A stretch of DNA of 64,000 bases, taken from Psilocybe cubensis. Taxonomy: Eukaryota. The position numbers and the translations under genes were made by a program. Of this stretch, positions 1-59,070 are shown one piece after another. Positions within the stretch are counted from its first letter, which is position 1. Each line of letters begins with the position of its first letter. The stretch spans positions 2,170,001 to 2,234,000 of the forward strand of contig CM039003.1 of NCBI GenBank assembly GCA_017499595.2, in the 5' to 3' direction. The notes under the pieces were generated by a model that made no database searches, had not been told where the DNA came from, and saw nothing but the letters and a program-made list of their open reading frames with translations.

Positions 1-3000
1 TCCTCCCTGGATGGTGTCTGCTTCGGAAATGCGAATCGGTCATTTCCAAACCACAAGACATAACAAGGGGCCGATGTCTCGTCCAACTCGTTTTTTGAAA
101 TCACAACTTTCTGCATTGGAGGCTCTTGGAAACTGCGTTTCACAGTCTTGGCTAGCAATTTTGACCGGGCCAAAATATAGTGGAAAGTCTAGCATCGTTC
201 GCACCCTCGCCAATTATTCTGGACACCGGTTGTGCGAAGTTTTTGTAAACAGCGCTACAGACACGATGGACATTCTAGGAAGCTTTGAACAAGTTGACCT
301 GCGTCGGCGCCTGACCACTTTGCTCGACGATCTTGTTGACGTTATCGACATTGATATTCGCTCGATTGCAGGGTCCAAGGTATTATCTAAATACCGACAC
401 GAGGCTTGTGATTTGCGAAATTCTTGCTATACTACTTCAGATCAAGATTTTCAAAGATTGTACCAAAAGGTGGAAACTTTTATTTCCCGGTTGGTTGCCT
501 TGGGGCCGCCCTCAATAAACCAGTACAAGCGTATTTTTACCTCACTTGCCGACCTTTCTTCTTTTTCCAGTATCGGCCAATTTGAGTGGGTAGACGGCCC
601 TCTTATCAAAGCTATGAAATCCGGAGATTGGATTATGCTCGATGGCGCAAACCTCTGCGGACCCTCTGTTCTGGACCGTTTGAATTCTTTGTGTGAAATG
701 AACGGTTTTCTTACACTCAGTGAACGAGGATTTGTCAATGGTGAAGTCCAGGTTGTCAAGCCGCACCCAAATTTCCGGCTATTTATGTCTGTTGACCCCC
801 ATTACGGAGAGCTCTCTCGAGCAATGCGAAACAGAGGCATAGAAATTGCTCTCATTGATGGCCCCATCTCGGATGATCAACAGATTCTCCAAGATCATTA
901 TCGGCTTCCTCGTGTTTTACCCGCCGCCTCTTCAGGGGGTTATATCTCCCAAATTACTTTGTTTGATGCTGTTCGACGCGGCCTTTTACAGGCTGAAGTG
1001 GAAAGGTCACCACTCTTGACATCCACAGGACGGTGCCTCGACCAAGACTCTGCACTTTCGAATTTGCTTGATCAAGCTCCGAATCTCATATTTTCTTCAC
1101 TCCCAATCAACGTTGAAGTACCGTGGATTCCCTTCCTCTCGCGTACATTAGTGCCGGCCTACATACCTTATGTATTGCGATACGTCTCTCATTCTCGGTA
1201 TCAAATGTCCTGTCAACCCATTTTAGTCGACTTCCTCGAAGCATTCCCTCAGCAAGAATTGCGCCATGCTCTTGCGAATATTCGAACATTTTATTTACAA
1301 CGAAAACAAACTTCGGATGCGTTTTTATTGGCACAGGTTGGAATTACTTCTAATTTGCGCGATATCTTCTCATATAGCCTCTTTTCTTTAGCCTATGGAT
1401 TTCTTTTGGATAGAAGGCACTTCGTTCGAAAAGTCGTTTGGAACCCACGGGGAAACGTTGCGTTCCTTGACTTTCGAAATTCTTAGTCTCAGTGCCGTAC
1501 TATTCATTTCTAAGCGAGAAAACCTTGTTGAGATGGACGAAAGAATTCCCCAGAAAGAGAAAAATATTCAAGCACATCACAGTGTGCTAAAGCTTTCACA
1601 ATATATGATCGACATCTCAGAGCACATAATAAAAAGTGCCTCTGTCATGGACTCCGGCGTGGTGGGTTCTAGCATTAACATTACGCTCTCATGACTAACG
1701 TATGACTCTAGGATTCAGTAAAACTGGCGTCTAAAATACTGGGCTATAGAACACATCTCATAGCTGCCCTCAATTCCTCCGCCTACGATTTTTCTGCCCT
1801 GTATGCTGTGTCGAATTGGCTGCTTGATAACCTCAGCAAATCCCCTCCAACATTCGATTTGTTACTTCAGGAATCTCAAACTCTCCACTCTATTGTCTCC
1901 CTCTCCTCGGGGCGTGGTTTGTTTAATTTATGGTCGAACATGTATATTGAGGAAATGTCTGGGACTATTCTCCAAGATGTTAGGCGTACTGATGAAATGG
2001 CATCTTTACTCAAGCAGTCGTCTGATGTCCCTAGTAAGTGTTAGTCCTAGCGACCACAAAACCACCTTTAATTTTTTTGTTAGATCTTCGACGCCAATCT
2101 TTTGATCTTATGAGTATGGAAACATTACCACCGTCATTAAAATCGCCGAAGTCCACATCATTGCTCGGTTTGAAGAAACTTCTCGACGAGGTGCGTTTAT
2201 CTTCTTCTACATATCCGCCAATGTCTCGTGTTTACTCCATTCATAGTGTTTGGTATCAAATTCCAATGCTAGTATCGCTGGCTCGTTTTATATCGAATCC
2301 AATTCCATACTCCTCGAATTATTTATTGTCGCGTCCAGTGCAACGTTGGGTACCGATAGGCAGGTTAGTTAACACATATTATTTGCTGAATTCTATTAAT
2401 TGCATTCTAGCTTGTGATCAGTTCGATGCAACAAATTCTCAAATTAGCCTTCGATAATGCTGGGACCTCCCTACTTCGTTTAGTCCCATATCAGCATCTA
2501 TTATGGTCCCAAGAAGTGGGTGCAGGTAAGCCCTTGGTTTCTATAAGTTGGAAACATGCCTCGATGCAAAATGTCCAGTGTCTGCGGGATTGATTGCCAA
2601 GGCCCAAATCCGCCTTTTAGAAGGATTGTGGGAGGTGCAACCTCATATACCGGTAATCCCTTTCGTATTTTCACTGCCAAAACTACATCTTACTCCTCGA
2701 TCCAGCAGATATCAGGGCCCTCAATCCTCCTACACCCATTCTCATTGTATAAGATAATTAAAACCTGGTAAGTGGGGATAAGTGGGCAAGAGCGTGCTTT
2801 CTTAATCACTTTTTTTAGTGATATGGGGCAAGTTGATTTGTTGTCATTGGCACAGCATGAATATGCTCTTCACCAACAAGGCCGTTTGGTCGTTTTAGAG
2901 TCCAAGCAAAACACCGACCGCGTGGTACAACTTATCCATCTTTTTTTCCAAACGCTTCATATCGTAAGTAACCAGGTGAATGCGTTCTACTTTTTCGCTC

Positions 3001-6000
3001 ATTCGTCATGAAGGTTGCCACCTCTTTCCGCCCTTCGAGCGATACATCTTATGAGTTCATCAAAAATGTTAAAATTGGAAATAGGACACAACTTCTGGAT
3101 TTCCTTCATCAAATGATGTCCTTGTTGCAAACCTCAAGTGACGAAATCTTTGCCACGTCAATTCGCAGACAATTCCTTCCTTTGATGCAACGTATGTCTG
3201 ACTCAACTCCACTGCAAACCCTTGGTCTGGCCTGGATTGGAGTCAGTCGGGTGCTTTCAGACCTTGCAATCCCTGATACCCCAATCGATCCCGCTGTTGT
3301 ACAGAATTCGAAGTACAACTGGATGCGCAGTGAAGAGGAGACCTTAAATGCCTCAATACGTTTGCATCAGCAACTTGAAAAACTGCTCACCGGAAATCAA
3401 GACAACGATGTTTCAAAACATCTAACAGCGTCTTTGGTGGACATTCGAGCTCAGCTTGAAAAGCTACCGATCTTACCCCCTCGTTCCGACATCTCTCGAT
3501 TACACTTGTTTTGGTCAGAGATTGTTCAATTTCAGACAAATGTTCTGTCACATTCCAAGATTGATGCCCTGATCGATTCTTTTATTCAAAGTAACCAAAA
3601 TGCCTCGTTACGCGAACGAGTCACTCAGGAATCTTTGGCTGGGTTTTATCATCGGTTAGATAGTGTTTACCCCGAATTTGCCGACATCAGCATTCTCCTC
3701 AAGCTTTCTATACAATATATGCGACTGGGGCTTAGACTTGTTGCAGAATCAAACTCTTCCTCAGACAATGTCACTCGAACCAAATGGGTCACATCCCTTA
3801 TTTCATTCCCTACAGCTTGCAGCTCCGATCGTATCATCCGTTGCTTCGGCAATGCAGATACTTCACTGGTACCCGCCAGTCATAACACTCTTCTGACATT
3901 GGCAGCTCTTTCTGTGCAGAATTCCCTAGGGATTCAAACAGGTGCTTATTGGCATCTAGTAGAAACAGCGTATGAACAGATTTTGCGGCTTTGGCTCATT
4001 GATCGCGCGAAGGAAAAACAGCAAATCAGCGACGATAGTACCTTGTATCGGAAATCAAAACTGGACCATCGGGCAGTAACAGACGCAGATTTAGAAGAAC
4101 ACGAATTCCTTTCACTGTTTCCCAACTTCGAAAATGTATTTGATGAAGAAACTCGTCAGCAAGATTCCAACTCTACAAGCCACCCTGGCCTCGTTGTGGC
4201 TACAGATATGGAAACTTTGATTCAAATCCATTATAATCTGATGGATTCTCCACACGGTATCTCGAAAGGCACAATGCGTAATATTTTCCAAAAACTACGT
4301 GATTCTTCTGTGCAAAACCTTTTCATCACCTCTTCGGAATCCCTCCCAGATACATTGGACCGCATTAGTTATCCGTTCCAATTCTCACTTCTACGAGATA
4401 GTATGCTGGCCTTGGAATCGAATCACAAAATGGACAGGTTGTCATATAACTTCTACATGGATAGCAATTACAAGGAACTCAAAAGGGCAGCTTCAGTGAT
4501 CCTTGCTCTCAAGCAAAGGCTTGAGGGTATTTTGGAAGAATGGCCTGATCAAATGGTTGTCAAACACTTGATGGAGAGATGTGACGACATCCTCACAACC
4601 TCATCGAAGACATCTGTCGCCAAAATGCTGTCAATGGTCGAGCAAGTTCTCGTGCAAAGCCAGGATTGGGAAATGTATTCGAATAAAGACAATTCTATCA
4701 AATCCAATCAAGAAGAAATAGTTCGTCTTGTAGTGGATTGGAGGAGATTAGAATTGTCCTGTTGGCAATCCCTCTTAGATTCACAGGCCAAAACGTTCAC
4801 AGACGAACTGTCTGAGTGGTGGTTCCGTTTATACGACGCCGTCATCCGAGGTACTCTAGCAGCTTTCAATCAGGATCTAGAGGATCCTGAACAAGCTGTC
4901 AATCGCTATCTCGACACCCTGATACCATTGCTTGACTCCTTCATTACTTCGAGTCCTCTCGGTCAATTCCATGCAAGACTAAAAATGCTCAACAGTTTTG
5001 AAACTTATATCACAAAGATATTGATACACAAGTCCTCGAAAGAACGCACAATCTTGAGTCGTGTGCTCCGTATCCTTCACGCGACTTATGTCTACCATAG
5101 CCTATTTTCGGAGAATCTTCGCAAGCGATTAGCGGATGAGAAGGCGTCATTGGAATCGGAAGTGAAAGCCTTGATCAAGTTGGCGAGCTGGAAAGATGTC
5201 AACGTGCAAGCACTTAAACAAAGTGCTCAAAAATCACACAGACAATTGTATAAGATTGTGAGGAAATTTCGTGACGTACTCAGGCAACCTGTAACGGAGG
5301 ACCTACAAGTGCAGAGTCCCAGTGACTCTGAACACCAAGCTTTATCTATGGAGGCGCCAATAGATTCGTCATCGTCCATGTCCACATCGAGAGTGTCTTT
5401 GAATGGGCGGCTAAAAGGCTTGAAAACGCCGGATTACCTTGTAAACTTGGAAGTCACTTTCGAAAAATATTCCTCCCTAGTCGAAAACATGTTGCGGCCA
5501 GCTGTTCAGTGTCAATCGGCCCATGCGGTAGACTCTTTCGCCGTCGAGATTATCACAACATCTAAAGATCTAGCGTCAATCACTGTGCCACTAAGTCTCA
5601 CGGCACAGGTCCGACAAAAACATCAAAAGGCATTATTAGTCCGAAAAAGAAAGGCTTTCTCAGATATGCTGAAGGCATTGAAACATGCAGGATTAGCCAG
5701 CAATGTGAAACCTGAAATATTGCGCCAAAACTCAAGCCAGCAATGGGTTCGGGAACAGCCAATCTTGAGGCAGACATCGATGATGGATTTGGATATCCAG
5801 AAAGGAAACATGTACTTTGCGAAACTTTGTGGCACATTGCCGGCTTTACGGGCGTTGCTCCCGAACCATCATGCTGATGTTACCACCCGTGAACTCCAAC
5901 GAGGTTTGATGTTTCTTGAGTCTGGTTTCTCTATGGCTGTCGATCTCAGAGCGCGGTATGTCGAAATAGTACGTTGAAATATGTATACTCATATACTCTC

Positions 6001-7051
6001 TTATAGGTTGGCCAACGCTTTGCCTCATCATCAGAAATTGACAGACACCTTGAAGAGATTGCACGCCTTGAAATCTCATACCGACTTAGTTGTCGCTGGG
6101 CAAAACGTTCTTGCACACGTATCTTCTGTTTATGATCTTCTTTCCAAATGCTCGCATGCTCTCTCGGAACTGCGTGATAATGTGATCATCTTCAATCAGA
6201 TCGACCCACCGGATTCTGGCATAGATAATTTTTTACAGCAAGTTTGTGTCCTTGCGTCCAGTACCGATACAATGTGTGAACGGGTATTTCACGTGCTTGG
6301 TTCCCTGAACTCTACTCCCATATCGTTTTTGACTCAGGGTACGTTTGATCCTTTCGGTTCTACGACAGAAGTTGAAATTAACGTTAAATCTAGATGAAAG
6401 CGGGCTTCTCATGGAAGCTCAAAGGCACATTTCCCGGACCCAGGATGCTATCTCTGGATGGCATAGAGAACAACCCTCGTTTGCTCATTTGCTTTTACCT
6501 ATTCTTCAATGGTTATCGGATCAACATATAGTTCCTCTGGACTCCACAATTTCGGGAGCAGTTGCAAATCCAAATCAAATGCGCGTCGATCAGTTCATTA
6601 GTTCACTCCTTGTTAGTGTTCAAGCCATGGTGTCAAAGGTATCATCAAATACGAGCGGCAAAGAAGAAGAAGAAGCAGAAACTGAGAAATATCTCTTTAG
6701 AGGGTATCAGCTCATACGAGATTGCACCCACGTTCTGAATCTAGAGCGTATCAGTAATCAACTAGATGAAGTTTTACGAGGACTATCTACTTCTGCCGAC
6801 CTTCATGACACCCTTGACAACCTTCTTCCCTTCCTCTCAGTATATCTTCCGCTTGTCGCAGACCAACTCTTTTCCCTCAACAATTGGACTAAATCGATAT
6901 TCAAGCTGGACTTTGTTTTGTGTTCGGTTCTCCAAACGCTCTCCCAACAAGGATTTTGTATACCCCCAGAGAGCGAAGGAAGTGAGGCAGGTGGAGAGTC
7001 TTCCAACGTTCCTGGAGTAGGTATTGGTGAAGGATCGGGGACGGAGAATGT
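1..7051 (+). CDS. MDN1: Midasin (Rea1) AAA-ATPase, portion upstream of the transposon insertion (last AAA module plus helical linker); 5' end lies outside the window; multi-exon
   Basis: ORF 11..1486 has Walker A GPKYSGKS, DILGSFEQVD, FEWVDGPLIKAMKSGDWIMLDGANLC..SVLDRLNSLCE and HPNFRLF..GELSRAMRNRGIE, all midasin AAA motifs. ORF 3008..5977 has the linker motifs WRRLELSCW, WWFRLY and LASWKDVNVQALKQSAQKSH. The frame reads GIGEGSGTENV up to the insertion. Confidence 0.96.
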
Positions 7052-7079
7052 TGTCGGAATTTTCAGGAATGCCTTACAA
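7052..7079 (+). repeat. Left terminal inverted repeat
   Basis: TGTCGGAATTTTCAGGAATGCCTTACAA; 24/28 identical to the reverse complement of 14670-14697. Confidence 0.95.
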
Positions 7080-7679
7080 GGCCGAAAAGGCCGGCAAGGC
7101 CCGGCTAGCCTTGTGATGCCTCCCAATCTGAGAGCGTGCCTAAGAAGTAACCGTGATTGACCTTGTAAGGTAGTGGCTTAGAAGTCTATACATGCCTAGC
7201 AAGGCGTAGGGAATAAGATTAGATTAAAAGACCTTGCTAGGTTGGGCTTGATTCAAAGGGCATCTAACAAATTAAAAGGAAGATGAACGCACTGACATAG
7301 TTTCCAATTGATTAGTAGTCAACGATTGCTTTCAGTAGGAATTGTGTTGAAGTCAAACTTTTATGCACTTACCAAGAACCGAACGCCAGACCTTCAAGAC
7401 AAGACAAACCTACCAATAGCATTGTTACCACTAGACCAAACCTCCTTTCTTAAATTATAGTGTGGCGTTAATATGACACCACATTTTCTGTGCTTAGTCA
7501 ACTGATGTAACCGATCGAGTCCAGAGTCGTCTACTCGGACTTCAATTTTTTCAGACAATCTCAATCGTGAGGGCCGTACTATGCATTGAAAAGCAAAGAA
7601 GTAATCAACCAAACACAGTAGTATGTCCGCCATAATGAGATACACCGGAATGCAAAGTAGTCTAAGTACAGCGTGCCTA

Positions 7680-9678
7680 CTATAATGGTGTAATATTAGC
7701 ACGCTTACTAGAGCGTGTGCTCCGTGTTTTGGCTACAACAGTTGCGTCAGGCTGCACAGGGGCCAACCCCTTCTTTCGACCACGTTTTGGCTTGATTACT
7801 GGTGCTTCAAGTGGAGAAATGCTTGTGGAAGCATTAGGAACAGAGACTGTATTGGAAGAAAGGGGAGGGCTTGTCGGAGTCTGAGTCTTCGGAACTGGGA
7901 GAAATACTGGGAGTGGAGCATTGACCGTGGTATTTGTAACATGGAGTGCAGACTCAAAGGCTGCCGGAGTCGGTTCTAATACCAATGATACATAATGGGC
8001 ATGAGCTAAACGCGTGGGAATCAAAAGACAAGTACCTTCGTCAGTATCAGATCTATCTTCAGTAATATCCTGAGTATTAGATGGCAGGTTCCGAGTGCTT
8101 TGTAGTGGCGGCGCAAAGTCTTCTACATCAGAGTCGGTGTCACGGTCTTCCACATTAACGATAGGACCCGGAATAGAAGTTGTTGAACTAGGAGTTATGG
8201 TTGTTTGTCGACTAAAGTTGGCAATCATCTGATAAACCGGATGCGGAGATGGACTTGACTCGGAATCCGACATCCTGGAATGGCTTGATGTAAGGATTTC
8301 CGTAGGCTGCTGTGTAATAGAAGTAGGAATAATGGGTTTTTGGTGTGGAAAGAGAATATTATCCCAATATTTGAACAGTGAAGCGAGTGATGACTGCTGT
8401 GTAATGAGATAATGCTTGTACATATCGTGTTGAGCAAGATAAAGCCTCCCTGTTGTTGGTCCTACACCACTACTGGTAAATTCACGGTCGTCGGATAAGA
8501 TGTATATAGTCTATATTAGTAGTCAATATCTAGCACTCAATTTATAATACATGTAATAACAAATACATACCGCTGTTGCAGACGCAGCTATCAAGCCTGG
8601 TGTTGTACAATTCATACGACTATCAATATGGGCGCTTGGACTATCTTCCCGTGTTCGAGGCATAATCTCCGCCTTTAAGGCCGATGGCCCTAGAAGAATG
8701 ATTCTTGCCGTCTAAACTAGAGTTTTAGCCAGGTATTATGTATTTTCAGAATTAAATATACTGTACCTTCAAAAGAAAATCACTTTTAAAAAGTCCCAAA
8801 GCGTTGTTGGTGTCAGAATCTGCAAATAAAACTGGGGGAAATGTGTGCGCAGTGTCATTGGGATAAATGAGCTTCCAGATTTCCTTCGTTCCGGTCATCA
8901 CTTTTACACGGTCCGATGCACCAAGCAATGTTTGCACAACCGCATGGGAGCTTAGGCCAAAAGACAATGGTGAGGTGAACAGCTCAGATGGAATGTTTGG
9001 GAAAATAGAAGGCGCAGAGGTCCGAATCTTATTTAGTATTGTTGAACGGCCTTCCGACAAGCCTTTAACGAACTATAGAATAAAGATATATGAGCAAGAT
9101 ATCCTAAACTTGGAAAAAAGATATAAAACGCACCACATTAACTGCCATCTCCACATTCTCACTGATAATTGAATGGTACTTTGCTGGAAAGCATTCGTAC
9201 AATTCCGCAATATTGCCAAGCTTGGATGTATTCTCGTCTTTGTACCGAGCAGATGCATTGTTAGAGCTGAACGAAGGCCTGGGATTTCCAAAGAGTGACT
9301 TGGGAACAATAATACGATAGAAAATGAAATGATATTTAGCAAGACGAATAAGGTCCTTTCGGAGAGCTATTTCGGCTGCGCAATCCGATGTGTCAGAGAC
9401 AGCAGGTCGAACAGCGCCTTTTTTGTTGATCAAGCGCATTTTCAAACTTGCGTTTTCCTCTTTAAGCTCCCGGACCTTTGATTCCAGATTAAAAATGGTA
9501 TCTTGCTGGATCCGACACCTCTGTTTCTATTCATTAGAATCTAGAAAATGCAAAAATACATTAAAATATTACTTACTTGCTCAAGCTCGGCCAATGTTGC
9601 TCCACGGAAAAAAGACGCGCCTGAAATGGATGACTCGCCTGCAACGGAGCTTGGAACAATTGACATTGATGAAGACAT
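7680..9678 (-). CDS. Transposon accessory protein of unknown function (multi-exon; N-terminal coiled coil, S/T/P-rich tail with basic NLS-like end)
   Basis: ATG at 9678 (MSSSMSIVPSS..LAELEQ, then gtaagt donor). Inferred exons include ORF pieces 9104..9445, 8752..9060 and 7680..8423, and the spliced motif TTPGLIAASATA..LSDDREF..GVGPTTGRLY. KPKRGRKK lies near the C-terminus. The gene sits between the TIRs. Confidence 0.75.
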
Positions 9679-9949
9679 GACCAAAGAGTTGTACCAGAGA
9701 GGATATGAGTTAGAATATCAGTGCTGCTACTCAGAAAGAAGAAATTTTGTGTCTTTTAAACAGAAAAGTGAGCCGCACCCTTTCCTCATGTTAAGCGCCG
9801 TGCTATAGCCTTGATATAACATCATTTTCCCACTATGTAAAGGATCAAGCTGAAAATTTAATATAACGTGTACAAAACACAAAAATAGAGCACTATGCAT
9901 GCTTGATTACACTCTTTATTGTATTCTGTTTAATATGTAACAACACTAG

Positions 9950-12900
9950 TTATAATAAAACATGTGTAGTTAATTTTATTGATTTTAACCGCCACCACAT
10001 GTCCGGATCAAGTGAATCCATAACAATAAACTCGTTTGCATCATTTCCAAAGTCTGGAATCAGAAGGCCACCGCGTACTATACTACGTACGTCAATAATT
10101 GCAGAGTTTGTTCGCCTTCGGGCTCGTACTCGGAGAAACTCTAAATCTTTATCACGCCTACGTGCCAAATTTGTGCGCTGATCAACCGGTTCATCAAGTG
10201 GCAGAATAAGAGCAAGCGGCCACTCTGTTTTGTCATCTAATGACACAATAAACATGAACAGAAGTTGTGCAAAGCAGTACTTCTGATGATCAAGTGCCAA
10301 AAGGACGTAATCATTTCGTGGCCGCTTGTGGAAACTTTTGCTAACTCGAACCATATCTCTTTGAGCCGACCAATCAATTTCCGACTGATAATGAATTCTT
10401 GCAAGCTCAAATGGTGTAATCTGTTACACAAGTAAGTTTTGACATGAAAAATAAATAATGCTTAAATTGTTCTTGTAACTCTTACCTTATGATTGGCTTT
10501 TAATCGGATAGTACTTCCAGAAGCTGCTGCAAGGTATTTTCCTGTTTTAATCCGGAAGCGTTCAAATGCCATGTTCTCTTTGAATTGTTTTTCCACATCG
10601 GCAAATGTGATTATTGCTTGAAGTGACCCAATTGAAATGTGACTTTGAGCTCTTTTCTCATTACTTGATCCTGTTAAATGTCAATTTAATAACATTATAC
10701 ATGTACAAACAAATAGACCGTTACCCAATGAATTTCCAAGATTGGAAACTTGTGGTGTAGATATAAGTGATTCTTCGCCGTCCTCTTTGGGCATGTCAAG
10801 ATCATCAATAGCATTGATATCCATGCGAATAATCATTGCAATAAGATCATCGTGGTTCATTTTTAATATCTGTTAGAAGCAAATTTACTAGATCAGACAA
10901 ATAATATTGTACACATGAATTAAAGCACATTCCTGTGGCGCCACATCTTTGAAATTGGTGTGAAAGCGGTACCAGAGCTTAAGCAAGCCATGTGCCTTTT
11001 CATTGGGTTTAGTATTAGAGTTCCGAGTTGCACCTTTTGCAACAATATCTTGAATCATATGGACATGTGAATGGATTTTAGGAAAATTCCAATTTTTGTC
11101 TGGATGGAGTTGAATATATTCCTGGAAATTTTATTGTTGAGAGAATTAATTGGGTCTACATATGAATTGGAGAATGCCTTACCTCAAGAATAGAACAGAA
11201 CTTTGCAAGTTCTTTTTGTAACCCATGTAATGTTGTACTGCTATGAATAATCAAAGATGAATACATATCCAATTCTACAAAGCTTCGCATAAGCTTGAGC
11301 AGACAATATCCACGGTCTGACTTCTCTAGAACATTATGAGATGCATAACAAATGATCTAGAAATCACAGATATATTATATTCACAATTAGTGTCTAAAAA
11401 ATGCATGTGTACCTTTGCTATATCTTCATATTTTGTTCCATCTGCAAATTCTCCTGTCTTAATTATAGATGCAAAGTGATTAAGACCACTCCATCGAGGA
11501 ATTTGATCAAATCTATAAAAGCATAAACCTTATTATTACTTATCCATCAAGAGGTTATATTATCAATGCTTACTGATTGTCAATAATCTCAGCATCTTTC
11601 CTTCCAGAGCTATCAATAATAGCCTTAAATTCTGACCATAAATGATCAGAAAATAGTCCACCATGGTATGCATGTAGTCGATCCCAGGAAAGAGCTTTAT
11701 ATACATCACTCCCATTCATCATCCAAAATACATTCTGTAGGAAATATTAATCAAGAATAATGACATATATAATGCACTATACCTCTACATTTCGTAATCC
11801 ATATTCTTTTAAATAATTCTCCTTATCTTTAGCTGTAAAATTTTGTGCCTCTGTATATATGTGTTTCATTTCTGCTGATGTTCGATAAGGGTATACCGTG
11901 GTAAGATTTGATAAATTTTCCTTTGGAACCAAGCATACAGGACACGGAAAGTTGCTTGTAGCACCACGGGTTAGGGCCATAACACATCTATAAAATAGGC
12001 GCCCAACAGTTTCATTTACTATAACAATTATATTGAAGTAAACTATTACTTACTGCTCTTCATAATCCGCTGATAAAATCAAAATAAAGAAGAATAGCCA
12101 CCGGACAATGTTGTCTGCACACTGTGCATAGTATCCTGTTGTGGCATATTCTTGAACGGACTTAAGAATTTCGTGGAATCCTTTGTGCCAAACAATACGC
12201 TTGAAGTTTACAAAAATTTTCTTTCCTGACTCGCCAGCATCTTCATCAACCTAGAAATCCATATTTGGAGTTTAATACTAAAAAAATTTATAACATTTAG
12301 AATGCTTACAATAGGCAGCCATCCAACTAGGATTCCCCCACCAATACCATCACTGTTTCGAAGATTTGCTGGAAGATTTGCACAGCGAGCAAGCACTGGA
12401 TATGCCTTTGCAGTACCAAAGGTGGATAGCCGAGTTTTGTCTGCATATAGGATAATAAAAAATGGTAATGCACCATTGGGAAGAAGGTTCTAAAGCAGAG
12501 TAGGATGATAAGTATTCTACATTTGTAAAAAGAAAAATATATACATCTACCTGGATGCTCCACCATTCATTTGCAGTCCATGGTTCTCCAATCAACCGGT
12601 CTCGTTTACCGTCATTTTGTTTATAATGCCTTTCAGCAATCCAATGAAACTGTGAAAGTAGAGAAGGATTCTGAAGAAGACTATTGCACCACTCAATTAG
12701 TGGCCGGATATACACTTCATACCCAATTTCATCATTTTGGTATGGTACAAGATATTCCTTTTTCTGGAACTGTACTCCATAGTATTAGTTAGTACAACTA
12801 CAAAATAGAAAAAATATTACGCACTCCAGTTGAACGGTAGCTACGAGCAAGCTCCCAGGTCTTCTCAAGCTCTGATACACTGTCAATTGTAAACTGCTCT

Positions 12901-13611
12901 GGCTTTTCTTTGATTCTGTCAATAAGGGTTAATAAAATCTGCTTTTGCTGCCTATTCATATGTGAGCTAAGTGCAAGTTCTGCCACTTCGAAGTCAAGAC
13001 GTGTCCTAAATGGATGCCACGGGTTGGTACTGGTAGAATGGGGTGTTGGTGACGTTTGATAGGAATTTGGATTATATTGGTGTGTAGGAATGAATTTTGG
13101 TGGCATATTTGCACTTGGATGAAATTCAATGCAGATTTGATGTGGAAGCGGTGGGGGCAAATGATTATTTGAAATTTCATCAAGCATTTGAAGTATAGAG
13201 GATTGATTTGTGACTGGCTCAATTGAATCTTCCGGCTCCATTGAAAGGGAAATATGATGACCATTTAGAGAATCCTGTGTCTCCATTTGAGCCATATCTA
13301 TAGCAGAATAAGAAGCGGTTGTAGAATCCTCATTTGGTATAGCTGGAGAGTGGCTAATAGCAGCATTTAAAATTGATGTATAATGTAGAGAGTCTGTATG
13401 AGTTTTGAATGGTAAATGTCAATAATTAGATTATACACTATGACATACTATTTTCATAAACCCTATTTGCAAAATCTCCAAAAGCATTCTGTGCATCCAG
13501 ACTTGGTGTTTTGCCACTACATGATCGGATATGTTGAGCAATGCCTTGGATGCTAAACATCTTGTTGCATATTGGGCACAATTGGTCCTTTGGCTGGCGG
13601 CGGTTAGCCAT
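9950..13611 (-). CDS. Plavaka transposase (multi-exon, N-terminal C2HC zinc finger)
   Basis: Starts MANRRQPKDQLCPICNKMFSIQGIAQHIRSC. Motifs read from the exons: WHPFRTRLDFEVAELAL, IGEPWTANEWW, IILYADKTRLSTFGTAKAYPVLARCANLP, LILSADYEEQ, FPCPVCLVPK, SWDRLHAYHGGLFSDHLW, IPRWSGLNHF and WNFPKIHSHVH..KGATRNSNTKPNEKAHG. These match the fungal Plavaka transposase pattern. Confidence 0.88.
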
Positions 13612-14669
13612 GTCTTTGAAAGTAAAGAAGATATCAGAAAGAGGAGCAGATAAAGAATTAAATATGATCCAACTGCTTTTATACTATTTTACCAGCATCT
13701 AATATAGAGTGTGCTGGAGATTATTCGTCTCATAGGCCCTAGTTTCATCATTCTGCTGCGCTACATCACTAAGCTACCATAATCAGTTCATCAATTTAGT
13801 CTGCCAGAACATGTATTCTAGTAACCATCTATCAAAATATGTCATAGTATCCAGCACAAAGGTCTTTAAGAGGTTAAAGATTCTCATTGTTGATGATTAA
13901 GGCAGTACTACCATAGTTGTACAGTGCAATATGCATGCAACATACAACAATCAACACCGAGTTACAATGCATCAACTTATGAGATATCAGTCAAATCATT
14001 CTTTCCCATGTATCATGTTCAAAATTAGTCTCTCTTCGTGTGGAATTACTGATTATCCACCGTACCCTAGATTATTTACCTTTGTAGATAGCATGTGCTA
14101 CATAAACAGTTACTTTGGTGAAGACGTAGACGATGTATGTGATTTTCTTCTAAGTCCACTGTGTCGCGTGATCCATGTGACATTCTTCTCACGGCCGTGA
14201 CCCTTTGCTTACTTGTGCTCTATGGCGCACAAACTGCAGGGATATTGACACAGCACTAAAAGTACATAAAATAAAGTGTAAATGATCCACAATGACGTAG
14301 AAAATTGTCCAATTTGATATATCTATACTGACCATCCCTTGAATGCCTGACAACTTTGCACTTGCTGTGTATGTGTGTGACGTTAGTCACAGTCAAGTTG
14401 TAAGGCCTCGTATGGTTGTAATATGGATCAACTTCAACTTCAGTAGGTTTCTTACGGTAGCTTGTACATTTAGCACTCACATTTTCTCAAAATAAATACG
14501 CATTTGGTCCTCTAAATACATTCTATAAATCATTTTCATTTGCCCCTCTTTACAAGTGAGTGACACATGACTTCTATATTTATCTAATCCAACGCAAGGC
14601 AAAAGTCGGCATTCTAAGAGAGCCGAATCACATTAGAAGCCAAATTTTGGCCTAATCTAGGCCCCATCA

Positions 14670-14697
14670 TTGTAAGGCTATCCCGAAATTTCCGACA
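14670..14697 (-). repeat. Right terminal inverted repeat
   Basis: Reverse complement reads TGTCGGAAATTTCGGGATAGCCTTACAA. Confidence 0.95.
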
Positions 14698-17311
14698 GTA
14701 AGCAAGGAAATCGAGGATGAAAGCCAAATCGAGGGTCTCAAAGGCGAGGAAGAGCAGAAGGCACCTGAAGGTGATCATGAGGACGGCGACGCTATTGAGA
14801 TGGATAACGACTTCGGCGGCAAGTTGGAGGATGTACCTGATCCTGCTTCAGACAAAGAAGACGATCGCGACGACAAGGACGACGGAAGCGAGCATGATAT
14901 CGATGAAACTTTAGGTGATCTAAATGATTTAGATACTGATGCTGTCGACGAGAAAATGTGGGGTGACGAAAAAGGCCCTGAAGGTACCGGCGACAAAGAT
15001 GAGAAGACAGATAAAGATCATTCGAAAGAGCAGGCAGGTCCCTCCGAGGTTGTTGCTAAAGAGGGCAAAGAACAGAAGAAGTCCCAGGACCAGGAGAGCG
15101 ATCATCAGCCAGAACCGGAACCGCAAGCGCCGTTGGAAGACCATGAAGAACATCTTGAAGATGCAGGGAACGACGAACCCTCAGATCCCGATGTGAACGG
15201 TGGAAAAATGGATGACTATGTACAGGATGCCGAGACACTTGAATTACCTGACGACATGGATTTGGGGTTAGATGGGGGTGAAAAAGAAGGCGAGGACGAT
15301 TTAACTAAAGATGACGATCCTATGGATGGTGACGATGAAGGACTGCCTGATGATAATGTGACTGAGGGGCTTGAGGATTTTTCCATGGATGACAAAACAA
15401 CGAATACACCTTCAGCCGATGTTTCAAAAGAAGATGATTCAGAACGGAACGATGATAATGACATGTTCTCGGAGGCACCCCAAGGTGTGGATGATGATGA
15501 GGCCAACCGGGAAGAGGGAGAAGATGAGGAAGCGGATGAAAAAGTAGAGGCCGTCGCTCGACCCGACATCTCTCATGACGGCGGAATGGCAGACCCAGGC
15601 GACATCGCTAATCCTGAGGCTGGGGAAAACTCATCTACTGGGGAAACAGGGACATCTCAAGGTGGTTTGGGTCAAGCTGCTTCAAAGAACGAAGAAAAGT
15701 CCGCTAATGTTGACGGGTACGATCAATTTTGTACTATCGATTGAATTTCACTAACATTCGTGTAGATCCTTGGAAGCCACGCAACTTTCGGAAAGCGTGC
15801 CTGAAGATAATGGCGGCACGGGATCTGCGTCGTCTGGTGTTCAACAAGGCCAAAAGGAATCGCAGAACAAATCAAGACCCATTCCAAATCCTTTACGCAG
15901 TCTGGGAGACGCCCTCAAGGAGATCCAACAACGATTTGATGAAATTCTCAATTCTGAATCAATGGATGCTCCCCGAGATAAAATGGGCGAATCAAACGCC
16001 AAGTCTCAGGTTGAATACCTCCTTCCTGAAGATATTGATGACGAGATGCAGGCGTTGGGTCCGGCTGGGGAAGAACAAGTTGCGAAGTTGGATCAGCTCA
16101 CTATCGTGGACGACAACATGGAAGTTGAGGAACCGCCTTTTTCTATGGATGTGGAGCCACCGTTGGTGCCTGAGGTACATGATCAGAGTATTCATCAGTC
16201 ACCTATTGAGGAACAAGAGCCGACTGCTACTGGACGGGAGCACGGAAAGGACGTAGAAGGTGCCATCTTAAAAATAGGTGCAACTCAAGCCGAAGTGTCT
16301 GCTGTTCACGACCCATCTTTGCCAAAGGTGGACGATATTCATGATGAAGACGAGCTTATTGAAACCCAACTTCGTCAATGGAGAGCTGCTGACTACCCTG
16401 AAGATGGAGCGGAGAAGATTTGGCGTCTATATGAATCTCTTACTCATGATCTTGCTTACACTTTGTGCGAACAACTTCGCCTCATCCTTGAACCAACCTT
16501 GGCCACCCGACTGAAGGGCGATTATCGGACCGGAAAACGGCTCAATATGAAGAAAGTCATTTCTTACATCGCCAGTGACTACACCAAGGACAAAATCTGG
16601 TTACGTCGCACGAAGCCAAGTCAGCGAGAATATCAAGTGCTCATATCCATTGATGATTCTCGTTCAATGGCAGAATCCCATTCAGTTCATCTCGCCTATC
16701 AAACGTTAGCTTTGATTTCCAAAGCCCTGAGCCGTCTAGAATCTGGAGACGTGGCAATTGCAAAGTTTGGCGAAACTGTTGATCTGCTCCATGGTTTTGA
16801 CGAAGGCCCTTTCTCAGATCAAGCAGGGACAAAAGTTATCAACGCCTTCCGGTTCACACAGAAGGCCACCAATGTTTTGTCTCTGCTGCAATTAACTTTG
16901 AAAGTCCTTGAAAGTGCAAGAGAACGAAAAGCAATGAGTTCCGCTTCAGCCGCTGACTTGTGGCAACTTCAAATTATTATCTCCGATGGAATGTGTCAAG
17001 ATCACGAAAAACTACGCACTATGTTGCGGAAGGCTGAAGAACAACGGGTTATGATCGTTTTCATCATCCTAGACTCACTTCAAGGGACAAAAACTGAGCC
17101 GGGTTCTTCAAAAGGTGCAACTCATGGGTCGATTCTGTCCATGGACAAAGCAGAGTTCAAAATGGTCGAAGGAAGAATGGAGCTCCAACTGCAAAAATAC
17201 TTGGATTCATTCCCCTTCGAGTACTACGTCGTTCTTCGGGAGGTGGAAGCTTTGCCTGACGTTCTAGCCGGAACATTAAAACAATTCTTCGAGCGCATCT
17301 CTGAGGAATAG
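14698..17311 (+). CDS. MDN1: Midasin C-terminal portion: D/E-rich region and MIDAS (VWA) domain, downstream of the insertion
   Basis: Frame resumes SKEIEDESQIEGL..DAIEMDNDFGG..AVDEKMW. After an intron near 15716-15766 comes LCEQLRLILEPTLATRLKGDYRTGKRLNMKKVISYIASDYTKDKIWLRRTKPSQREYQVLISIDDSRSM (MIDAS DxSxS), IIISDG and YLDSFPFEYY; stop at 17311. Confidence 0.96.
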
Positions 17312-17735
17312 TTGACTTGCACACAAGGGGTCCTATCCAATGCCTGGTAATATATTGTGAAAATCTTGTTGTGGTACGTTGTACGACTCGGAGTAGTATA
17401 CATAAAAGTAATGTATAATATTTGTACAGTAGGTTTAATTCATCTTATCGCAAACTCAAAATGTATTTGAGTTTAAGGGTACTATTTGCATAATTGTCCG
17501 ATAACGAGGCCAGCAACTTGCAGATTCTGACACAATGCGATTACGTAATAGTAAGTTCGGACACAAATCGGCTGCTTTAAATATAAAACACACTCGCTTA
17601 CTACTTCACCTATTCGTAGATGATAGAGGAAGCAACCTCTGGAAGTCATTTTTAGCCAATCCTCCGTACTCTTGCTCCACGACGACTTTCAGGCGTTCCT
17701 CAGATTTATTCCTAAAGCTTAAGTCTCCGAAGTCC

Positions 17736-19917
17736 ATGTCTGCTTCGACGAGTTCTTCACCTACACCGAAGAACAAGACCTTTTCGCCCAAGGACGCTGA
17801 GGTCGAGGAAAGAAAGGGCCTTCTTATTGATGCGGACGAAAACTTGGATGACCACGATGAATACTTTGAAGATGACATCCCAACGACTCGGTCCTCTTGG
17901 TCGCGGAGAAAGATTACGACGACAGCCATTGTGATAATTGGGCTACTGGTGACTGGGGCGCTGGCTCGTACCGTTCTGTTTGGTAGTCCTGGAAGAATGA
18001 CGAACCATTCTGCTTTTTCTGGAGAAGAGCTGCGTTCCAATGGCACGGCCTTGTTCAAACGAACCGTCGTCGTCGTCTCCATTGACGGGTTAAGGTATGT
18101 CATGATGGTAATAATGGTAATTATGTTTTAACTCTTTTTAAAATGGACCACAGGGCAGACTATCTGGACCGAGGTTTCACACCTCATTTACTTGCACTCA
18201 GCAAAAAGGGTCTTCGAGCTAAATCCATGAAACCTATATTTCCAGTAAGTCGCGCATAGTTTACAGAGCAATTATATTCACTCTCAATCACCGGCAGACT
18301 TTAACATTTCCGTGAGTCAATGTTTGAGTAAAGGTACCTTTTCTCATCTACTCTATGTAACATAAAGTAATCATTGGGCTATAATGTATGTCACTTCCGT
18401 CTATTCATGTTAATCTGTTATTGAAGGTAACACAGGACTGGTTTGCATGCCGAATCTCATGGAATAGTAGCAAATGTGACGAACCGTTTGTCTGTATATT
18501 TGGCTCAGCTGATATATCTAGTTAGAACTTCTGGGATCCAGTTACTGGGGAAGAATTCCATTACAATCAAATTAAATCTGCCTGGATTTCATCCTGGTGG
18601 TTTGGAGAACCTGTGAAAAACCATCCCTCTGATTTTTACACTGACATTCACTGACTGTACAATATACCTTAGATGTGGGAAACCGCTGAGAAGGCGGGCG
18701 TGACGGCAGCTAATCTGATGTGGTGGGTACAAAATTTTACCCCCCCCCCCCTCCCCCCCCCTTCCTTTGCCTTGAATGACCTCAAAATAGGCCCGGTCCC
18801 CCAAAAACCACATCTGGATCCTCCGCAACATATTTTGTCCCCTGGAAAGTAAGAAAAACAATCTACAGTATGCTGGTCATTTCATCGAATCTTTCGTAGG
18901 ACAAAGTTCCCCTTGAAGACAAACTGAAGCAAATTCTAAACTGGATTGATCTTCCTCTTGATAAGAGACCACAGCTGATATTGGGTAAGTCGGAAACATA
19001 AACACTTAATTTGAGTATATCTTTACATTTTTTGACACTATTTCAGCCTATGAACCTTCTCTTGACCAAGCGGGTCATGCAACAGGTCCATATTCTGAGC
19101 GGGTTAACGTAAGAACAGAGTTTCATCATAGGATAGGCAACTTGATCAATTTCCATTCTCAGCATACCCTTGTACAAGTGGACGTTTTTGCAAAGGAGCT
19201 TCATGACTCCATCGCCGCTCGCAATCTAACCGATATAGTCGACATCGTTTTTGTTAGTGACCACGGCATGACAGATACCAGTAATCCTGAGCCAGTATAT
19301 ATGGATGACATTTTAGGCAAGGAAGGGATCGCTGCTATCGCTCACGAGGATGGCTGGCCATCAATGGGCCTTCGGTTCCATGAGCACGCTAATTTGTCGA
19401 AGCACCTCGACGCACTTTTAAAGGCTTCAGATAATAATCCGGAGAAGTTTGACGTCTATACCCACGAAACTATGCCCGAGAGATACCATTTTGCGAACAA
19501 TGAACGCATTGCTCCCATATATGTCGTACCAAAGATTGGATATATTCTAACAACACATGCAGAAGGCAATACTGGCATGAGCAAAGGGGTGCGTCAAAGT
19601 AACTCTCGAAAGGTTTTTCTCCTGATCATCAATATTACCAGAATCACGGATACGACAACGAAGAAGTTTCGATGCAGGCTATGTTTGTCGCTCATGGGCC
19701 ATTCTCTCACCAGGCTAAAGCACAGCACCAGCGACGATCAAAAATCGCGCATCTATCTTCTCGAGCTCATGAAGGTTGGCACTCGACTTCGGACGACACG
19801 TATATCATGAATACTTTCCAGAATGTTGAAATCTATAATCTGGTGATGAAACTTCTGGGTATTGAGAACATTGCTAATAACAATGGCACGCTCGGCTTCT
19901 GGGATCAATATCTATGA
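17736..19917 (+). CDS. NPP1: Ectonucleotide pyrophosphatase/phosphodiesterase (type II membrane protein, alkaline phosphatase superfamily)
   Basis: N-terminal TM segment, VVSIDGLRADYL, spliced [69 protein letters not shown] and FQNVEIYNLVMKLLGI. Confidence 0.93.
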
Positions 19918-21741: not shown

Positions 21742-23968
<2,227 letters not shown>

Positions 23969-25142: not shown

Positions 25143-27306
<2,164 letters not shown>

Positions 27307-53900: not shown

Positions 53901-54621
53901 ACAACTTGGCTATGAAATTTTGGCGCTTGGAGTCGTTACATTTAGAATGGATCTCAATTCTGGGCCCTCGAAGTTCTTGATATAACTTTTTATATTGTAC
54001 GGCAAAGGGTACGGTTTACTAGTATATAGGTGAACTATCTTGACCCCAAAGGTACTCATGACGTCATCTACTCGCTTATCTATGTTTCCCACCATCTACG
54101 TAAGCAGCACGCGTACCCGGAACCGGTAATTATGTGCCGACCCGCATTTTTATTGCACCTTCAAGCTTCAAGTTGGCTCTTTCTTAAACACAACCATTTA
54201 TTGTCCGTCGCCGATGCCCGACATGTTTTCCGATGAATTTTGCGCCTCTCCCTTGCAACCTGTTGCTGCTCACTAGAGGCACGTCTCATAAAAAAAGTTA
54301 ACTTTTTGCGTGCAAGTTCGTAGGAAAACTTCATATCTCGGTGTCTCTCAAAGTTGCCCTGCGTCCTACTATGAGCCACTATTTTCTCAGACAAATGTAC
54401 ACTTAGTGCATTTATGTCTTTGTGGTACCAGCATTTAATATGGCTGTTAAGCGCATTTGTGACTCGTATTCTATGACCTTCTCCAAACCTTCCCGTACGG
54501 TCGGCACCGCGAGTCAGTCTTGGTTTTGGGTTACTCTGCCGGCTACCTTCATCCTTCGATTCCCACACATTCCATATAAAAGGACCTCTAACCCCTTGGT
54601 AAGCCTTAACACATCACCCTC

Positions 54622-56274
54622 ATGTCATCCAAGAACACAATCACCCCATTCCAAATCAATATTACCGAGGAACGGATTAGCCTCCTACAGCAAAAGCTCG
54701 CGTTATCGATCCTCCCCGACGAATTAGAGGATGCGGGACGCGACTACGGCGTACCGCTTGCCGATATTCAGCGCCTACTTGCTCGCTGGCAATCTGGGTA
54801 CGATTGGAAGAAACACGAGAAGGAATTGAATCAGGAGTTACCGCAGTTCCAGACGGATATAGACATTGAAGGGCATGGAACCCTCAAAATCCACTTCGTG
54901 CACAAGAAAAGTAATGTGGAAGGAGCCATACCTTTGCTATTTGTCCATGGATGTAAGCTCTTTTATCTCGGCATATTAGCAAGAATAACCTTCTTTTTTG
55001 CAGGGCCTGGCAGTGTGGTTGAAGTCCGCAAAATTTTACCACTCTTAATTCAAGGATCACCTGCGTTTCATGTGGTCGCCCTCGGTTTGCCCGGGTATGG
55101 GTTTTCTGAAGCTCCCAAGAAAAAAGGATTCGCTTTTGATCAATACGCCGAGGTAAATATCTATCGTTATCAACACGGCTACCCTTGTTATTTCTGAGAC
55201 TGATACGCATGCGCTTGAAGGTAGGGAACAAATTGATGATCGCACTGGGATATGATCAGTATGGTAAGTACACTATGATTAGTATGCACTTTTGGGTCTT
55301 ACAAATACACAATACTTCACCTAAATCCAGTAACCCAGGGAGGGGACTGGGGATATATGGTAGGCTAAATTTAGAGCCTGTTTGCAACGATGTTCAGTAT
55401 TTAATGGCTTTTTTTAGGTCACCAGAAGGATTGCCCACCTTTACGGTGGAACGCACTGCAAAGCTTGGCACACTAACTACGAGGCGGCAGAACCTGGTCG
55501 GTTAGTAATCAACGATTGACTGCTACTGTTTGGAGCACAAACTGAAGTGTATGTCTCTTTGGGCGACATAATAACTAGGGTGCCTCCAGAACTCTTTTCT
55601 CAGCCTGCCGAATTTTTCAAGAATCTGAGTCCTGATATCACACCGGAGGAGAAATCAGGCTTGGAAAGATCAGTATGGTTCAGGACACAAGGAATGGGAT
55701 ATTTCATGGAGCAATCCACGCAACCACAAACAATTGGATACAGTTTAGCCGATTCTCCTGTTGGTCTTCTTGCTTGGATTTATGAAAAGCTTGTCAATTG
55801 GACAGATAACTACCCTTGGGATGACGACGAAGGTTTGTCCCGTTTGATTTATTGCACATAGTCGAGGCAATCCTGATGACCAAATTTGTTTGTAGTTCTG
55901 ACCTGGGTATCCATTTATTGGTTCTCAAATGCTGGCCCTGCAGCATCCGCGAGAATCTATTACGAGAGTGTAAGGGAAGCTCCTACTGCTAATCCACTCC
56001 CAACAATTCCACACGGAGCGTCTGTGTTTCCCAAAGATATTTTTGTTGCCCCGCTTTCGTGAGTGTCGTTGTCCTTCATAGTGCAAATTTCAGTCTAATA
56101 AAAATTCATTGTAGATGGACCAAGAGCCCCCACAGAGTATTTGAGACCGCTCATAACAAAGGAGGACATTTTGCAGCCTTGGAATCGCCCGAGGTGCTGG
56201 TAGGTGATTTGAGAAAAATGTTTGCCCAAGGAGGACCGGCATATGGGGTTGTTGAGGGTAAATCAGGATACTAG
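54622..56274 (+). CDS. Epoxide hydrolase (EHN domain plus alpha/beta hydrolase), copy 1
   Basis: [73 protein letters not shown]. Confidence 0.95.
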
Positions 56275-56951
56275 CCCATTTTTTCCGATAAATAAATGGC
56301 GTCAAGAACAACTAAAGAATTGAAGTAAATGTACCTGGTTTGTCGCTCATTGTGCACCAACGTCGCAAATCAGGTGACGTCGTGAGTACCTTTTGGGTAA
56401 TGGAACGTCCCCCGAGCATTTACTCAGCTTCAACTTGTCACGTCAACTTGTATTCAAGGAAGAATTTCCGACGCCATACCCTCATCACTCAAAGTAACTA
56501 AGCTTCAGCTTACCATTCATGCCAAACATAAGCCGTTTTTTCTGGTTCCTACTTCACCAAAAGTTGAAGCTTGGAGTTTCAGCTTAAAGTGGCTTCAAGT
56601 GGCAGCCACTCAAGGCTTCCAAACCTCAACTATCTCAGGCGGACTACCATCCTAGTAAAAAACGATAGGCAATAACTGATTCCAAGATATCGACTTTATT
56701 AGCATGCGTTTTTGATTCATTCTGATTCTTGACATCCTCCCAATAACGCTGCTCAAGCGCAGTTCCAACTTGTCGGCTGTACATCCGGTTGTTGGCGTCG
56801 TTACCTCTCAATTATCTTGTGCGTACTGTATAAATGCACTGGCAGACATTCATGTTCATCCCTTACTGAAACCATGATACGTGAAAATTTCCTCATTCAA
56901 CTTCTCTTTTTTTCAAGTCTTTTCTACTACAGCACCGCGGTAAAAAACCAG

Positions 56952-58587
56952 ATGAACGCTGTGACCAAACCCTTTCAGATCAGCGTCCCGGATAAGAGCT
57001 TAGAACTTTTGAACAAGAAGCTTGCACTGTCGATTCTTCCTGACGAATTGGAGGACGCAGGACGTGACTATGGGGCACCCCTCAGTGATATTCAGCGCCT
57101 ACTCGCCCGCTGGAAGTCTGGGTACGACTGGAGGAGGTATGAAAAGCAAATCAACAGCGAGCTTCCACAATTTCAGACTGAAATCGATGTAAACGGACAC
57201 GGGACGCTCAAGATCCACTTTGTGCACAAGAAAAGTGAGGTTGAAGGCGCTATTCCGTTGTTGTTCGTTCATGGATGTGAGTTTTAAGGTTGATTTTCCT
57301 TTTAAAACGAGAGGATTAATATTCAGCTATACAGGGCCAGGTAGTGTGGTTGAAGTCCGCAAGATTTTACCGCTCTTGATAAAAGGAGGCCCCGACCAAC
57401 CCTCTTTCCATGTTGTCGCTCTCAGCTTGCCAGGGTTTGGCTTTTCGGAAGCTCCCAGGAAAAGAGGTTTTGCTTTTGATCAGTACGCCGAAGTGAAAAG
57501 ATCCTTTACTAAAATTTGATACACAATACTTAGAACGGTTTATTAGGTCGGAAACAAGCTAATGTTGGCATTGGGATACGATCAGTATGGTATATTCTGT
57601 TTTTAGTTTGAATTGTCTATTTAGCGCATTAATTACTTTGCCCTTAGTTACTCAAGGAGGGGACTGGGGTTATATGGTATGTGTGATTCAACCTAGTATA
57701 AATATATATATTTATAGCGAGTTTGTTATTGATGACTATCTGTAGGTCACCAGAAGAATCGGTCATTTATACGGCCGAAACTACAGCAGAGCATGGCACA
57801 CCAATTACGAGGCTGCAGAACCTGGTCGGTCAGTGTTTTAACATCATTAAAACATTTATCAATGCTAACAACTCTTCCACAAACATGTATAGTGTTCCAG
57901 CAGAACTATTTTCAAAGACAGATGAATTTCTAAAGAACCTAGGACCCGAATATACAGCAGCAGATAAGGCAGGCTTAGAAAGAACAGTGTGGTACAGGAA
58001 TCAAGGCATGGGCTATTTCTCGGAGCAAGCTACCCAGCCACAAACGATTGGCTATAGCCTGGCTGACTCGCCCGTTGGGCTTCTCGCATGGATATATGAG
58101 AAACTTGTCAACTGGACGGATGATTATTCATGGGACGATGATGAAGGTAAGTATTTATGCTTTAAATGCAACCCTGACAAATGACGCCCAACTATTGGTA
58201 GTTTTGACGTGGGTATCAATATACTGGTTTTCCACCGCCGGTCCCGTTGCATCTGTCAGGATTTACTATGAAAACAGACACGAAAAGCCTTATATCGACA
58301 TTCTCCCAACGATTCCACATGGCGCATCTGTATTCCCGAAGGATATCTTTGTGGCACCTTTATCGTGAGTCATTACTCTACGGTTTCTGTCTCCTTGAAG
58401 CTGGGTAAACGAACATCGTATTGCAAGGTGGACTGAGAGTCCCTACAGAGTCTTTGCGACGGTGCACCCCCGTGGTGGACATTTTGCTGCCACAGAACAA
58501 CCTGAGAGGCTGGTTGAAGATGTGAGAAGGATGTTTGCCAAAAAAGGCCCAGCGTTTGGTGTGGTTGAGGGTAGAATAGGGTATTGA
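56952..58587 (+). CDS. Epoxide hydrolase, copy 2
   Basis: Same motifs and intron positions as copy 1: [35 protein letters not shown]; ends EGRIGY-stop. Confidence 0.94.
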
Positions 58588-59070
58588 GCAATTGCAGGAT
58601 GGGTGACCTGGAGGGTACTCATGACATCATCTATCTTGAGTTCACAATATTTCATGGACAGCCGGCTTGAGCGGGTCAATGTTTCCTTCTTTTGCCGCGG
58701 TCATCGTTGCCACAAAATCCTTATCTTCATTAGAACTTGACCGGAAAGATACATCAAGCCTTCAAATGTACAGAAAATAATGATTACTCGGGCAATACAA
58801 TGAGCTTAAGATCATGATCAGAATTCAATCCGAGTCATTTTGCGACCCACCTGCCAACTCGATTTGATAGTTTCGATCTCTCAGGAGAACGGTATGCTTC
58901 CGTTTTGCTAAGCTTGATTCGTCATCTACGCCTCAATGTGCCAGAACCATGGTGCAACTCTTAAACAAGTCCATTCAGGATTCTCCATTCCCACACAATC
59001 AAGTATAAAATTATACATGAAACCGACCTTGTCAGATGTGATTCACCCAAGATTCATGACTCTTTCTACC

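Follow-up and report, generated by a model that had tools for sequence, protein, structure and literature searches.

Introduction

Plavaka elements are divided by Kojima (2025, PMC12730594) into two lineages, PlavakaA and PlavakaB. PlavakaA elements generate target-site duplications (TSDs) of 2 bp and have the termini 5'-TGT..ACA-3', and PlavakaB elements generate TSDs of 2-3 bp and have the termini CATCA..TGATG. The same source sets beside them the CACTA/EnSpm (CMC) elements, whose related DDE transposases carry Cys/His motifs, and which share with the Plavaka element described below short TSDs, a subterminal structure and long multi-exon genes. Here we describe a PlavakaA-type transposon that lies within a coding exon of the midasin gene (MDN1/Rea1) of Psilocybe cubensis, in a stretch of 64,000 nucleotides (nt) of contig CM039003.1 (assembly GCA_017499595.2, positions 2,170,001 to 2,234,000 of the forward strand). 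This stretch is referred to throughout as the window, and all coordinates are counted from its first letter.

An earlier note on this DNA, prepared from the letters alone, had claimed that an intact Plavaka element with a clean 2-bp GT duplication interrupts midasin, and had read the locus as a very recent insertion by an active element, either a recessive lethal sheltered in a dikaryon or one tolerated through repair at the RNA level. We followed up these claims with public sequencing reads, protein and Pfam matches, and the literature. The element, its duplication and its target without the insertion could all be observed, and we consider it probable that a very recent PlavakaA insertion is carried, as a null allele, beside an intact allele.

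Results

Structure of the insertion

Read along the + strand, the sequence across the insertion is GAGAAT-GT-TGTCGGAA...TTCCGACA-GT-AAGCAAG (7050-14699). The transposon measures 7,646 bp (7052..14697) and is flanked on both sides by GT (left copy 7050..7051, right copy 14698..14699), a 2-bp TSD in the one insertion examined. Its limits are given by the empty-site joint in the reads, where two letters fit either side, and by a stand-alone contig from run X3 with exactly the same coordinates (both described below). The inverted repeat scoring best in 6500-15500 pairs 7052-7079 on the + strand with 14670-14697 on the - strand; it is an imperfect terminal inverted repeat (TIR) of 28 nt (86% complementary), the outer ends of which coincide exactly with the ends of the inserted block. 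The left TIR starts with TGTCGGAA and contains a GCCTTACAA box, and the element termini are TGTCGG...CCGACA, i.e. TGT..ACA.

A 17-base TIR pattern occurs in the window at the two element ends and at one chance site with three mismatches (3670; 0.15 expected by chance), and neither this pattern search nor a long-repeat search of the element found further copies within the window. Subterminal repeats amount to just a few CCTTACAA-like boxes within the terminal 500 nt. The GC content of the element interior (9001-14000) is 0.33-0.42, as against 0.42-0.49 in the flanks.

Judged by its TSD, its termini and its first bases, the element fits PlavakaA (Plavaka lineage A, CMCT clade). In the supplement of PMC12730594, the consensus sequences of PlavakaA-1_CCO and PlavakaA-1_LB share the element's first 8 bases (TGTCGGAA), and that of PlavakaA-1_LB also has the GCCTTACAA box inside its TIR.

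The gene of the element

The element carries a single long gene on the - strand (7683..13611) that encodes a C2HC zinc finger, a Plavaka transposase core and a C-terminal DUF6698, in about 19-20 exons and about 1,500 amino acids (aa), uninterrupted by any frame break. Over its whole length of 1,444 residues, the UniRef protein P0002 can be placed exactly on the minus strand (13295-7683), in 18 blocks. Between these blocks lie gaps of 48-75 nt and a single longer one of 340 nt. Plain GT..AG borders are seen in most of the gaps, and in some, split codons shift the borders by one or two bases. A further protein, P0125, also maps exactly onto the element, and the first exon (13611-13450), with the zinc finger, is supplied by P0126/P0124. 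P0002 matches the Plavaka transposase profile PF18759 at 185.7 bits (cutoff 26.3; profile positions 38-322 of 325) and contains CPVC and then HSHVH, in that order. The DUF6698 region matches PF20414 at 41.6 bits, and the zinc finger reaches 19.6 bits with zf-C2HC_2, below the 27-bit cutoff of that profile. The element is, as far as its reading frames tell, coding-intact, in agreement with the earlier statement that the transposase exons checked are in frame.

An exon query of UniRef showed that the element protein is identical to annotated P. cubensis proteins, and protein clusters place proteins at least 90% identical to it at six loci of the annotated P. cubensis assembly. Outside P. cubensis, identity to the closest proteins is no more than 48-49%; as no close foreign relative was found, a recent horizontal transfer from some sequenced species was rejected.

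The public gene models of the element conflict at 9649-9988, between the transposase core and DUF6698, where one model has the 340-nt intron and another a 24-residue block at 9849-9778.

The interrupted midasin gene

The insertion splits a Val codon in a midasin exon, directly ahead of a linker rich in aspartate and glutamate (D/E-rich). Once the element is taken out, the frame continues as ..GEGSGTEN-V-SKEIEDE.., and the site is exonic, since an RNA contig of run X10 passes through the point. The part of midasin 5' of the insertion, cut by the window start, occupies 2..7049 on the + strand and was recognized by its open frames and an AAA_5 match (46.2 bits); it includes a 1,001-aa exon, followed by the exon that ends ..GEGSGTEN at 7049. 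Its introns, seen as GT..AG joints in run X10, lie at 1335-1389, 1661-1710, 2034-2083, 2189-2244, 2362-2408, 2523-2575, 5955-6005 and 6338-6392. The part 3' of the insertion (14700..17311, + strand) consists of a D/E-rich open reading frame (ORF) at 14700-15715 that opens with SKEIEDE, an intron at 15716-15764 taken from X10, and a last exon that runs to the stop and encodes the MIDAS/VWA domain with the motif DDSRS (DxSxS); its VWA match scores 18.6 bits, below the 23.8 cutoff. This last exon is 100% identical to the NCBI protein 'Midasin [Psilocybe cubensis]' (P0003, 875 aa), and its identity to many JGI proteins that bear the name 'midasin' is 58-70%. The window thus holds the midasin architecture of dynein-like AAA domains, a long linker, a D/E-rich stretch and a C-terminal MIDAS with DxSxS, with the N-terminal AAA ring outside the window. 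Both halves are open, and over 3160-7049 and 14698-16645 a contig without the insertion shows no difference from them (run X3, below), in keeping with the earlier description of them as looking undegraded.

Translated without splicing, the midasin frame gains Val and 35 element-encoded residues and meets its first in-frame stop, a TGA, at 7158..7160 (+ strand), which is where the earlier note had placed it. The protein of the interrupted allele is predicted to end 36 residues into the insertion and to lack both the D/E-rich linker and the MIDAS domain. Rea1/Mdn1 and its MIDAS domain, as the earlier note had pointed out, are essential for 60S maturation in yeasts. According to PMC6624252, yeast Rea1 without MIDAS (residues 1-4621) is lethal but, when overexpressed, has no dominant-negative effect, since the MIDAS loop contains the nuclear import signal. 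A recessive null is therefore expected: by analogy with yeast, the interrupted midasin allele should be null and would behave as a recessive loss-of-function allele.

Reads with and without the element

Read evidence comes from four (X3, X9, X10 and X13) of 14 listed public runs, aligned on window positions 1-19000. A joint from 7049 to 14698, which skips 7,648 bases and leaves two letters fitting either side, as expected of the GT duplication, is present in all four. In X3, a DNA run that may be a source of the window DNA, a 5,838-nt contig joins 3160-7049 to 14698-16645 with 0 differences in the flanks. In the DNA run X9, a 32-kb contig crosses the empty site with 12 flank differences, and in X10 an RNA contig passes through it with 8. 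Among the raw reads of X13, 14 (3 + 11) span the joint and 9 clipped reads continue as the other flank, with 22 variable sites. A further 14 GT..AG joints, 47-68 nt long, mark X10 as true RNA. The search for empty-site reads that the earlier note had suggested thus found a precise empty site in every run examined, one of them with identical flanks, and the duplication it had described is borne out by these joints as well as by the flanking GT letters.

The element itself has a depth of 73.3 in X3, about four times that of the flanks (17.9), and zero depth at ≥95% identity in X9, X10 and X13; none of the 14 runs listed is an RNA run that holds it. In X3 it is assembled as a separate, unbranched contig of 7,646 nt that corresponds exactly to 7052-14697, with 0 differences from the window copy. 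This contig has flanks of its own from other loci, two differing on the left and three on the right; their consensus strings are mixtures (agreement 0.6), from which the TSDs of the other copies could not be read. The element is therefore multi-copy, and present or absent by strain. The fraction of the query words present in runs X1-X7 is 0.96-0.99.

The contigs of X3 break at 1714-1768, 3105-3160 and 16951-17010, with no differing letters reported. These breaks may mark heterozygous positions at which short bubble contigs were lost to filtering; if so, X3 would hold two nearly identical genomes.

The insertion in public annotation

P0003, the public midasin of P. cubensis, is a C-terminal fragment only. 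It starts with 9 residues of an ATG exon that lies within the transposon (14343-14369) and continues across the right inverted repeat (to 14699); its N-terminus is an annotation artefact of the insertion. The accession numbers on either side of P0003 are the element's own gene models. P0003 opens in element sequence, and the annotated P. cubensis assembly (JR316_ locus tags) therefore carries the same split gene.

Other features of the window

At 54610-59646 lie three paralogues in tandem, spaced at about 2.1-2.3 kb, whose repeat blocks are 64-88% identical; each carries an epoxide hydrolase N-terminal domain (EHN, about 102-103 bits). A pair of 169-nt direct repeats (22952-23120 and 26341-26509; 74% identity, 3.4 kb apart) probably represents two paralogous genes.

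Discussion

The probable account of this locus, a very recent PlavakaA insertion carried as a null allele beside an intact one, would run as follows. An autonomous cut-and-paste transposon of the PlavakaA type would have inserted into the midasin coding exon at the start of the D/E-rich linker, duplicating GT, in a very young event confined to one lineage, and the same haplotype would still exist without the element. The intact allele would supply midasin from the other nucleus of a dikaryon or, if the insertion were somatic, from other nuclei of the mycelium, the dikaryon being in our judgement roughly twice as probable. A collapsed assembly would then have retained the filled haplotype only. 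Fruit-body stems were the material for one public P. cubensis HiFi assembly, built with a collapsing assembler, in which heterozygous sites made up 98.2% of the self-mapped variants (PMC8220353); that assembly is not tied to the window, and it makes plausible that two genomes occur in one sample and that a heterozygous insertion could enter a collapsed consensus.

We regard the event as very recent and the element as lately, and probably still, active because identical flanks occur with and without the insertion, copies of the element are identical, six loci encode proteins at least 90% identical to its own, and the element is absent from three runs. The earlier reading of a very recent insertion by an active-looking element is in this respect supported.

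Several points weigh against a sheltered null allele. The filled junction was seen in none of the four runs examined, X3 with its identical flanks included, and the filled allele would seem to be absent or rare in X3, because a de Bruijn contig runs unbroken over the empty site there. None of the four shows heterozygosity for the insertion, which is read from the window's assembly, and the essentiality of midasin is carried over from yeast.

The absence of the filled junction from these runs would also follow if the filled site were an assembly or library artefact that is present in no nucleus. In the same direction, of 8 candidate ORFs that terminate in the tail encoded by the element, none had an exact match in the protein collection; this is only a blank, as the gene caller may have chosen another start and any alternative start would appear as M. 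A misjoin through a repeat, on the other hand, would join the flanks of different loci. What is found is a complete element that divides a single exon exactly in register and has the family's 2-bp duplication, which is the signature of transposition; because of this, and because the ends of the element are those of the stand-alone contig, we attribute the junctions to transposition rather than to a misjoin, and hold an artefact to be very improbable.

Equally little weight falls on the possibility that the insertion is homozygous or haploid and tolerated, the element being spliced from the pre-mRNA to leave an in-frame midasin with a small change in a disordered linker. The target duplication does place a GT at the left edge, the site lies within the low-complexity D/E-rich linker, and in silico the message would stay in frame and free of stops with 19 GT..AG pairs located no more than about 150 nt from the ends, of which the pair 7050/14706 would cost only Val-Ser-Lys. 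The most obvious pair (7050/14698), however, leads to a frameshift and an immediate TAA, and every candidate intron would measure at least 7.5 kb, more than 100 times the usual length in a host whose 14 introns seen in RNA are 47-68 nt long. The RNA run itself has no element depth and shares flank differences (e.g. 6278, 6858, 16324) with the element-free DNA run X9, and its joint represents the empty allele and not RNA repair, because the same exact joint stands in DNA runs. The narrower form of this proposal, in which the filled allele is the sole midasin allele of the sequenced nuclei and is rescued by splicing through the duplication GT and an AG just past the right end, is a shade more improbable still; if true, a full-length autonomous DNA transposon of 7.6 kb would act as a facultative intron in a fungus with introns of about 50 nt. 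Similarly slight is the chance that a second intact MDN1 locus elsewhere makes the interrupted copy dispensable. Nothing direct speaks in its favor; among the 120 MIDAS-region matches listed (282-900 aa), the sole P. cubensis entry is the locus described here, and the raw-read depth of X13 is even over both gene halves, with ordinary heterozygous sites. To our knowledge, midasin is single-copy in the organisms known.

As an event, the sheltered PlavakaA insertion that we favor is of an ordinary kind, a young transposon knock-out allele that is unusually well documented, and it involves no new mechanism. For users of the P. cubensis reference, it means that midasin is split there by a strain-private insertion. 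A filled site and an exact empty site on the same haplotype, identical copies, and presence or absence by strain together provide good circumstantial evidence for present PlavakaA transposition in cultivated lineages of P. cubensis, which makes the element a candidate for the experimental study of Plavaka transposition.

A counterpart to the midasin insertion within the species is a 4.6-kb insertion at the psilocybin N-methyltransferase gene in the P. cubensis HiFi assembly (McKernan et al. 2021, PMC8220353), which is likewise of kilobase scale, within a gene and found in one cultivated strain, and which, like the insertion in midasin, does not appear in the other DNA and RNA data of the species. 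It differs in its locus, and its nature is unstated in that paper. With regard to the predicted product, Ahmed et al. (2019, PMC6624252) offer a parallel in the engineered yeast rea1 without MIDAS (1-4621), in which midasin is, as here, truncated before MIDAS; the P. cubensis allele would in addition lose the whole D/E-rich linker and gain 35 foreign residues.

With regard to the element, the published PlavakaA families encode a Plavaka-domain transposase that bears C(2)C and H(3)H motifs, and they lack a TET/JBP gene. The element in midasin likewise encodes a Plavaka-domain transposase, in which CPVC and HSHVH may correspond to these motifs, and no TET/JBP gene. Host and family differ: the name Psilocybe occurs nowhere in the text or the supplement of PMC12730594, nor is Psilocybe the subject of any of the 16 titles listed out of 20 papers naming 'Plavaka'. 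The element is a new member of a described Plavaka lineage, and its ends and TSD add no new knowledge. The earlier claim that this site would define ends and TSD for a family little characterised so far is not supported, since the PlavakaA signature is already published (PMC12730594). As described there, CACTA elements end in CAC..GTG and generate 3-bp TSDs, in contrast to the TGT..ACA termini and the 2-bp TSD of the element in midasin. Compared with the published PlavakaA cases, what distinguishes the P. cubensis insertion is that its exact empty site could be observed alongside it, on a haplotype that is otherwise identical.

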